A stretch of DNA of 64,000 nucleotides from Escherichia coli (GCF_013315695.1 NZ_CP054353.1); one strand, 5' to 3'; shown: positions 39,501 through 42,500, counted from the stretch's first letter. Program-made: the numbers.

Positions 39501-42500
39501 ACTTGGTTTTTTGAATGCAGTAATATCACAATTAACTAACTCAATATCCAGATCCATTGGCTTGGATACACCTCCTGCTTCAAGGTAGCTTTTTGAGAGC
39601 TGCCCAAAATCAATAGACTGATCAGCTGATTTCTGAGAAATGCTGCATGGAGCAGCAACAACAGTTCCGTTAAAAGTTACTTTACCCTGCCCCTGAGGAA
39701 TAGTTGGAGCAGCATGTGCACCAAAAGACACCACTGCCATAGCTACCGCACCGGCAATAACCGACTTAATCATAAATAACAACCTCTTTTTCATTACTGA
39801 ACACACCAGAGATATCTGGCAATTTAAAATGACCCGATTACCTTTAATAACCAGATCAATACAAATAATATTCTCGTATTTTCAGGGCAGGTTATTTATC
39901 GACAGAATACTGATATAACCTGTCTGCTTTCTGATAAGGGCTTCTTTTTTTATCTTCCAGAAACTCCGGAATGCCATAATTTAGTCAAATGCCGACGACT
40001 CATCTGTATAATAAGGTGCAAGCCTTGCTGCAAGAGCATTCAGCCGTATAAGTCTCCCCAGTGTTGTACTGAAATACCCATTATTCATCTGGTATTTCTC
40101 GCAGACCTCCTTACGGGAGTGCCCACCTACCAGATAGTCCTTCATAGCCAGAATGACCCTGTCACTGTGAATAGAAGAAATACCTATCAGTAAAAAAAAT
40201 GCATTTCAGACATAGAGCCGGGCAACAGCACGCTCTCGCGTATATTCAGCAAAAACGCATTTCCTGACCGACTGATGACTTCATGATGCGCCATGTTTCC
40301 CCCTTCTGTCGGGCCCCTGGATATATGCTTCCGGCCCGGAAATACTCTTCACGCAATAAGTTAAATTTAGTTTTTTATGTTGTAAATATTGATTTAAACG
40401 ATCTTTTAACCCACAAAACAAAATTAAACTAGAATAAAACACTAACAACAAGAATACACTCAGATAAAAACATCATGGTGAATTGAATTTACAGCATAAA
40501 AGATCGTCTAAATGCATTTTTACGGACTTTCTTTTCACAGAAAAATAACACACAAAATGTGATACACATCAAATAAAGCCAACAAAAAGCAAATTCACTA
40601 AATTGCACAAATAAAGCAAACACAGAGAATAAAAATACCTTTCCGTTGATAACAGAGAGCATGATTTTTATTATTCGAAGAAACTTTGTTACAGTGAGAT
40701 GAGTGAATATATGAAGAATGAAATACTGGAATTTCTGAACAGGCATAATGGAGGGAAAACCGCAGAAATTGCGGAGGCGCTGGCGGTAACGGATTATCAG
40801 GCACGCTATTACCTGTTATTACTGGAAAAAGAAGGTGTGGTTCAGCGCTCTCCATTAAGGCGAGGCATGGCAACATACTGGCTTCTGAAAGGAGAGAAGC
40901 AGGCGGGGCAGAGCTGTTCTTCCACAACTTAATAACTCAATCTGTGGGCATGCTTCACTGAAACAGATAAAAGTTACATCAGAGTGCAGATTCAATTTTG
41001 CAGCATTCATCACAAAATAGAAATTTAGTATTTTATGTCAGAATACTTCACATGATAATAAAAACCTGTCTGGATTTACTGCATGGCCAGACATTACAAA
41101 ATACAAACGCCATAAACTTCATTCAGCCTTCTTGCTGTTCGGTAACGGAGGCTGCTTTTTCGTTACACCTTTCCCCGGCAGCATCAGTAGCAGTAATTTA
41201 TAGATTCTACGAACTGAGACTGTCTGTCCGGGGAGAACGTACACAGCCCGACACAATGTACCAGTCAATAATATCCGGTTTCTGATTCCCTGCCTGACAG
41301 ACCACTCTCTGGCAACTTTGTATTCAGTTCATCTACTACTGGAGACAGATTTATAAAATCCAACTCCACGATCTTTGACCGTCCGCATCCCCTACTCTCT
41401 GTGCTGCGGTCATCGGTTAATTCCAGCGTCCGTCCGTTACGATCAGATATTACTGAACCGCCCCGGGTTTCCTGGAGAGTGTTTTATCTGTGAACTCAGG
41501 CTGCCAGATCATTGTTTCCGATGGAAGCATAATAAGCTTTTTCTGCTTCTGCCGGAGGAGTATGGCCCAGCCTTCCCAGCAATCATCGATTGTTATACCA
41601 GTCCACCCACGTGAGTGTGGCCAGTTCCACTTCTGCACGGTTTTTCCAGCTCTTACGGTGTATTACCTCCGCTTTGTAAAGACCATTGATGCTCTCCGCC
41701 ATCGCGTTGTCATACGAGTCGCCTGTACTCCCTGTTGATGCCAGCAGTTTTGCTTCTTTTAATCGCTCCATATAGGCCAGTGACACATACTGAGAGCCTT
41801 TATCGCTGTGATGGATGGTGCCGGACGGACGGCGGGCCCACAACGCCTGCTCCAGCGCATCCAGCACGAATGTCGTTTCCATAGACGATGAGACCCACCA
41901 CCCCACGATGTATCCGGCAAACACATCAATGATGAACGCCACATAGACGAAGCCCTGCCATGTGCTGACGTAAGTAAAATCAGCCACCCACAGCTGGTCA
42001 GGACGTTCTGCCACGAACTGACGGTTTACGCGGTCACCTGCAGCAACGGTTTTCCGGCTGACGGTAGTGCGGACCTTTTTACCCCGGAGAACACCGGCAA
42101 GTCCCATAACCGCCATGAGGCGCGCCACTGTACATCTGGCCACCCTGATTCCTTCCCGTAACAACTGACGCCAGACTTTACGCACACCGTACACCTGATG
42201 ATTTTCATCGTATACGCGCTGTATCTCTCTCTTCAGCCAGTCATCGCGCTGCGCACGGGCACTGCGTTTATCAGGATGATGTCGCTGTTGCTGACAGTGG
42301 TAATACGTTGACGGGGCAATATGTAGTTCACTGCATACCGGTCCGACCCCGTACAGCTTACGCAGCTTATCCAGCAGTGGCATCACTTTTTCCAGAGGCG
42401 GTCGAACTCCGCCTTCGCAAAATAAGCGGAAGCCTGGCGAAGGATATCGTTACTGCGGCGCAGTTCACGATTTTCACGTTCCAGCTCTTTCAGACGCTGA

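Follow-up and report, generated by a model that had tools for sequence, protein, structure and literature searches.

The window analyzed here, a stretch of 64,000 nucleotides from Escherichia coli (GCF_013315695.1, NZ_CP054353.1), carries a pap fimbrial locus whose Dam/Lrp phase switch and papI gene are intact in sequence and whose papB gene is frameshifted by a single-base deletion. We think it probable that this locus is an inherited relic, a complete switch left without PapB, and that it is now locked in the OFF state; we predict the locked state because PapB feedback is lost with the papB frameshift. The locus lies in an island at tRNA-Phe (pheV), together with iha, sat and iutA. Over 20 kb, the window has the same sequence as the E. 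coli MSB1_4I chromosome (NZ_LR898874.1; rectal swab, Australia).

papI (plus strand, from 40699) and papB (minus strand, ATG at 40294) are divergent, with 404 bp of AT-rich DNA between them (40295–40698, 32% G+C). This intergenic region has only two GATC sites, at 40400–40403 and 40502–40505, and no other two of the window's 170 GATC sites are exactly 102 bp apart; both stand at precisely the positions that the earlier note had given for them. Each is surrounded by the 11-nt motif ACGATCTTTTA, the two copies being inverted relative to each other, and the GATCTTT at both sites fits the Lrp half-motif GNNNTTT. In published numbering, the GATCs are held by Lrp sites 2 and 5 (PMC11316696), which correspond to the promoter-proximal copy (40397–40410, plus strand) and the distal copy (40495–40509, minus strand), respectively; the distal copy is conserved in sfa and in all pap alleles examined. 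A GNNNTTT motif at 40370–40376, between the putative −35 and −10 elements of papBA, would correspond to Lrp site 3, and two further motifs on the minus strand (40436–40442 and 40468–40474), 31–36 bp from the GATC-bearing sites, are candidate flanking Lrp sites. Site numbers other than 2, 3 and 5 follow reviews, and the promoter and site assignments combine the sequence with the literature. Hernday and colleagues reportedly found in 2003 that ACGATC is required for PapI-dependent binding.

At the sequence level the region also has a CRP-like site and putative sigma-70 promoters for both papI and papBA, elements that are common to functional alleles. The candidate papI promoter, TTGATA-17-TATTAT (40646–40674, plus strand), scores 10/12 in a consensus scan, lies 25 nt upstream of the papI ATG and has the same sequence in CFT073 and 536. 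The putative papBA promoter (40358–40386, minus strand) was read from the sequence as a −35 TTTACA at 40386–40381 and a −10 TAACTT at 40363–40358, hexamers that a stricter consensus scan missed. Between the distal GATC and papI, the CRP/CAP-like site TGTGATACACATCAAA (40558–40573) is unchanged in all aligned pap alleles. Its center, at 40565.5, is 215.5 nt from the likely papBA start (~40350), in agreement with the published CAP position of −215 (Weyand 2001, as cited in PMC11316696). An Rfam scan of 39000–42000 gave no match in the intergenic region. By its sequence, then, the region is the canonical pap Dam/Lrp epigenetic phase switch, with the switch DNA and papI both intact; in such a switch, the papI and papBA promoters point away from each other and enclose six Lrp sites, of which sites 2 and 5 hold the Dam targets.

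papI is an open reading frame (ORF) of 77 codons plus stop (40699–40932, plus strand), annotated as PapI (WP_000006214.1) by the Prokaryotic Genome Annotation Pipeline (PGAP). Its product matches the Pfam family FaeA at 1.1e-30 and the nuclear magnetic resonance structure of PapI (PDB 2HTJ) at 6.5e-43. Each of its residues is found in at least one PapI encoded beside an intact papB, and none is unique to the window allele. The switch has kept an intact PapI-family co-regulator, as the earlier note had supposed.

The frameshift that had been claimed for papB (39981–40294, minus strand) is likewise real. A tract of eight T (T8; plus-strand A8, 40192–40199) stands where the intact papB of CFT073 and 536 has nine (T9), and translation from the ATG at 40294 yields MAHHEVISRSGNAFLLNIRESVLLPGSMSEMHFFY, which stops after codon 35 at the first of two stops; the remaining frame corresponds to PapB residues 33–104. 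When one T is added to the tract computationally, the result is a 104-aa PapB that matches the FocB crystal structure 3M8J at 3e-51 over residues 1–102. Only this repaired version matches FocB over its full length, so the window allele does not encode an intact PapB-family activator. In tblastn the repaired PapB falls in two frames, 40294–40199 and 40199–39984. The lesion is masked in annotation: a 54-aa ORF (39981–40145, minus strand) equivalent to PapB residues 51–104 is listed by PGAP as WP_001305388.1, 'PapB/FocB family', and matches the Pfam PapB profile at 3.4e-18 over positions 46–91 only. PGAP calls this tail an ordinary coding sequence, not a pseudogene, in every genome we looked at, and presence/absence screens therefore score papB as present. 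We found no mention of a papB frameshift in E. coli in the literature searched.

We aligned the 971 bp spanning papB, the intergenic region and papI to four operons with an intact papB, those of CFT073 (pheV copy), 536, AR_0017 and CU37RT-2, the first three of which also have full structural genes. Across 39970–40940, the sole position at which the window departs from all four references is the T-tract deletion. Alignment of the intergenic region to functional pap operons, CFT073 and 536 among them, needs no gaps, and the 102-bp spacing recurs in eight pap alleles (the window, EC1, strain 5-1, MS 21-1, CFT073, 536, AR_0017 and CU37RT-2) and in sfa; because of this agreement, the arrangement is evidently one of homology and not of chance. 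MS 21-1 was considered as a T9 twin of the window allele (99.9% identity over 972 bp) and rejected, as its extra base lies in the T run at ~40370 and its papB is also T8. The extra T itself (locus L006) falls in a T6 run that belongs both to the spacer of the putative papBA promoter and to the motif of Lrp site 3; it may be a true change of the spacer or a mistake of assembly in the homopolymer.

The pap switch of uropathogenic E. coli has been worked out by Low, Braaten, Nou, Hernday and van der Woude, and by Baga, Forsman and Uhlin. It shares with the window the divergent papI and papBA around a 404-bp AT-rich region, the inverted GATC-bearing motifs at Lrp sites 2 and 5, GNNNTTT motifs every ~30–36 bp and the spacing of the CRP site from the likely papBA start; the window PapI is identical or nearly so to that of functional pap alleles. 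The window differs from functional pap in its 1-nt papB deletion, with which the PapB feedback arm would be gone, and in a downstream structural operon that is non-functional. The sfa/foc systems (S and F1C fimbriae; SfaC/SfaB) follow the same plan, with two GATCs 102 bp apart in inverted ACGATCTTTT (locus L009) between divergent PapI and PapB homologues, and sfaB keeps the F-F-L codons TTT TTT TTA. Unlike the window, sfa has an intact sfaB and a third GATC 8 bp from the proximal one, and nucleotide identity between the two is ~74%. No sfa locus was detected by blastn in the MSB1_4I chromosome.

What would such a switch do without PapB? By the established model of functional pap systems, Lrp in OFF cells sits on sites 1–3, which keeps the papBA promoter shut and Dam away from the proximal GATC, the distal one being methylated. 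After replication, PapI together with Lrp shifts binding from sites 1–3 to sites 4–6 and papBA fires; PapB then activates the papI promoter, and this feedback maintains the ON state (PMC4546395, PMC11316696, PMC10073500). The T9-to-T8 deletion would by itself remove PapB and hence the positive-feedback arm of the circuit, leaving papI at a basal level. Lrp would then stay on the promoter-proximal sites, shielding the GATC at 40400 from Dam and repressing papBA. We predict that the GATC at 40502 is methylated and the GATC at 40400 unmethylated in essentially all cells; neither methylation of both sites nor a mixed population is expected of a switch that lacks PapB. Re-awakening would require a PapB or PapI homologue acting in trans, and one of the pap/sfa/foc type is apparently not encoded in MSB1_4I.

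Several points weigh against this reading. The OFF-locked state is a prediction from sequence and literature, and basal, PapB-independent transcription of papI has been described (PMC12388093), by which some PapI may be made. More distant regulators of the PapB and PapI families, such as those of afa/dra/daa or plasmid-borne papB paralogues, may be present elsewhere in the genome. The slippery U8 tract, in addition, might make the frameshift slightly leaky.

To place the lesion among other genomes, an 86-nt probe spanning the T tract was matched exactly against complete-genome records. The window's T8 allele was found in 13 records, and T8 with one single-nucleotide polymorphism (SNP; G to A at 40221) in 651, which include Nissle 1917 and the sequence type 131 (ST131) references JJ1886 and O25b:H4. 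At least 664 complete genomes thus have a T8 papB, beside an intact switch and papI, which amounts to ~664 of the ~1,250 records with any pap-type papB. Where the remnant is of the ST131 type, papB was frameshifted in every complete genome examined, and we found no T9 counterpart with the same island surroundings. Between the two T8 sub-alleles there are six differences in 971 bp (0.6%), evenly spread: the papB pseudogene has two, the intergenic region three and papI a single non-synonymous one. They show no sign that selection has acted on either papI or the switch among T8 alleles, though six differences are too few to give such a comparison any power. The simplest history would be a single old T9-to-T8 event, followed by the G-to-A SNP and clonal spread with the island. 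The locus thus appears to be an ordinary, clonally inherited relic of the pheV island, with nothing special in its retention and nothing unusual in its parts.

Two other explanations concern the T tract itself. The papB lesion lies in a homopolymer, as do the frameshifts of papC and papG described below, and one might suspect either a sequencing error or a reversible slipped-strand tract that toggles papB. Both are almost certainly wrong. Sequencing error was rejected because T8 stands in the 13 and 651 records above, 664 independent complete assemblies that concur. In a contingency locus, tract length varies among otherwise identical close relatives; such variation was not found. On the ST131/Nissle 87-nt background, T9 occurs in only three of 654 records, one of them an older assembly of Nissle 1917 for which two other assemblies have T8, a discordance that suggests assembly noise and not biology. 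On the window's 87-nt background, T9 occurs in six records, all of them other, unrelated pap alleles that lie in another island and accompany a different PapI. When the tract is paired with the SNP, 22 bp from it, in a four-gamete test, all four combinations do occur, yet this was rejected as evidence of phase variation because the rare classes consist of these unrelated alleles and the three assemblies that include the contradicted Nissle one. A second explanation accepts T8 and supposes that it still yields a little full-length PapB, either because RNA polymerase adds a U or because ribosomes slip by −1 on U UUU UUU. The zero frame, CA-U UUU UUU-UAC UGA, does hold this heptamer with a stop close behind it, and a −1 slip or one added U gives exactly the wild-type protein (...MHFFLLIG...), for which FFLLIGISSIHSDR would be a marker peptide. 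Slippage has been documented at A/T runs of eight or nine (in human apoB an A8 run restores about one-tenth of the product, and A8 is used in some insertion sequence (IS) elements; PMC1088944), and low concentrations of PapB suffice for activation (PMC12388093). However, the RNA beyond the tract has a predicted fold no more stable than that of shuffled sequences (z = −0.40), no Shine-Dalgarno-like stimulator is visible in the upstream sequence, and the structural genes have decayed independently in several lineages, as expected of a silent operon. We consider a leaky frameshift of this kind quite improbable. In its most consequential form, in which the T8 papB of ST131, Nissle 1917 and the window is not null and slippage gives a few per cent of authentic PapB, we would give it equally little credence. 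If it were true, the locus would be a low-gain module that, together with papI and the switch, could affect pap-family switches and fim, with a reach of a third or more of clinical extraintestinal pathogenic E. coli genomes.

The remaining alternative is that papI and the switch have been kept because PapI, together with Lrp, still serves other switches of the pap family in trans. This is close to the earlier note's suggestion of continued input from the locus into fimbrial cross-talk; the note's description, of a canonical switch, an intact papI, a frameshifted papB and a decayed operon, is correct, and its cross-talk suggestion holds only in part. papI, its promoter and the switch are all free of lesions. 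Effects on operons other than their own have been reported for PapI-family proteins and for PapB/FocB (PMC12388093, PMC11316696, with Totsika 2008 as cited there), and a gain in papI copy number has been noted in ST131 (PMC8115979). In principle, PapB or FocB encoded by a different operon could also induce the papI of the window. Moreover, of 32 T8-remnant genomes sampled, about 11 have a second papB-like locus, a possible source of PapB and a possible target, and Nissle 1917 has both the remnant and a second place in its record. For MSB1_4I the case is weak. Its chromosome record has one pap/sfa/foc-type regulatory region by blastn, so the closest known targets and trans-activators are absent; a distant search turned up only one further place across all genomes. 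PapB, which is required to raise papI transcription, is frameshifted. PapB is also known to activate papI at its promoter and to inhibit switching of fim (PMC4546395, PMC11316696), and because papB is the broken gene, cross-talk mediated by PapB, including that to fim, would be lost. Selection is not evident in the six differences between the sub-alleles, and a region as small as ~640 bp would be expected to stay intact by chance when divergence is 0.6%. The allele seems simply to have been inherited. We therefore regard retention for a role in trans as unlikely, and prefer the reading of a PapB-less relic; cross-talk is more reasonable for Nissle 1917 and for strains with a second papB-like locus than for MSB1_4I.

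The structural genes downstream are decayed, as had been noted earlier. papA (39207–39773, minus strand; PGAP, Pfam Fimbrial) is intact. papC (35989–38498, minus strand), which PGAP labels 'frameshifted', has an A8-to-A7 change (plus-strand T7, 38224–38230) relative to the intact papC of AR_0017 and is split over two ORFs with PapC_N and Usher domains; this frameshift is a candidate for an assembly error. In the distal operon (31273–33397, minus strand), papF is truncated by an IS1 element (32346–33043), and the papG frame breaks in two at a T9 run (plus-strand A9, 31981–31989). The papB, papC and papG frameshifts are all single-base changes in A/T runs of 7–9, and such runs are the usual hotspot for frameshifts. 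MS 21-1 shares the T8 papB and the papG split with the window; its papC and papF are intact, the papC lesion being absent, and it has a papA frameshift of its own. EC1 and strain 5-1 have kept only a damaged papA, the papB pseudogene and papI, with everything beyond papA lost. The papB and papG lesions are therefore old and shared, with the papC frameshift and the papF IS1 insertion later in the window lineage. Because some lesions are shared and the others lineage-specific, this pattern fits an operon that was silenced early and then left to drift.

Several observations in and around the island stand apart from the switch. In EC1 (locus L001, 9800–18700) the remnant lies between mirror-image copies of a set of elements (IS3 fragments, the group II intron ltrA and IS629), which make up a large inverted duplication around it. 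papX, a motility repressor gene, is normally co-transcribed at the end of the pap operon; at its position the window has an intact 183-aa gene of the MarR family (29251–29802, minus strand), and an IS3 pseudogene (29969–31134) sits between papG and this papX-like gene. On the other side of the locus, the segment 41083–41261 (plus strand) matches the Rfam family RF02876, 'AS-pc02, antisense to pHK01_099', with 56.5 bits (gathering threshold 40; E = 2.3e-12) and lies between papI and an IS3 pseudogene. Upstream of the sat region, a T16 homopolymer (62663–62678) directly follows a tandem TAATTGATCG repeat with GATCs at 62647 and 62658, the two together spanning 62647–62678. The window as a whole has fewer GATC sites (170 observed) than its shuffles (238.5 ± 13.8), and the 7.7 kb of pap structural genes at 31795–39550 have none. 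This scarcity fits the GATC depletion reported for the genomic island GI-pheV in ST131 (PMC4659465).

The window locus is of the same kind as the published 'papIBA' remnant, which was reported by gene presence in ~65% of 4,071 ST131 genomes (Decano et al. 2020, PMC8115979), and its switch is the textbook one, with nothing new in it. The remnant of ST131, and the truncated pap of the Nissle 1917 type, share with the window the pheV island with iha, sat and iuc/iutA, the T8 papB (exact or with the one SNP) and an intact switch and papI. Unlike the typical ST131 remnant, in which all beyond papA is deleted, MSB1_4I has kept a near-whole operon from papA to papG, inactivated by frameshifts and IS1. 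The ST131 survey counts papB as present and proposes that the retained PapB might regulate fim (PMC8115979); in the ST131 methylome study, nothing is said of the GATC sites of pap.

Both the screens that list papB among the virulence genes of ST131 and the idea that PapB damps type 1 fimbriae there consequently rest on a gene whose product is probably not made. papI is the sole intact regulator left in the ST131-type remnant. In the roughly one-third of remnant genomes that have a second pap-family operon, this extra, PapB-inducible copy of papI could shift the frequency of switching.

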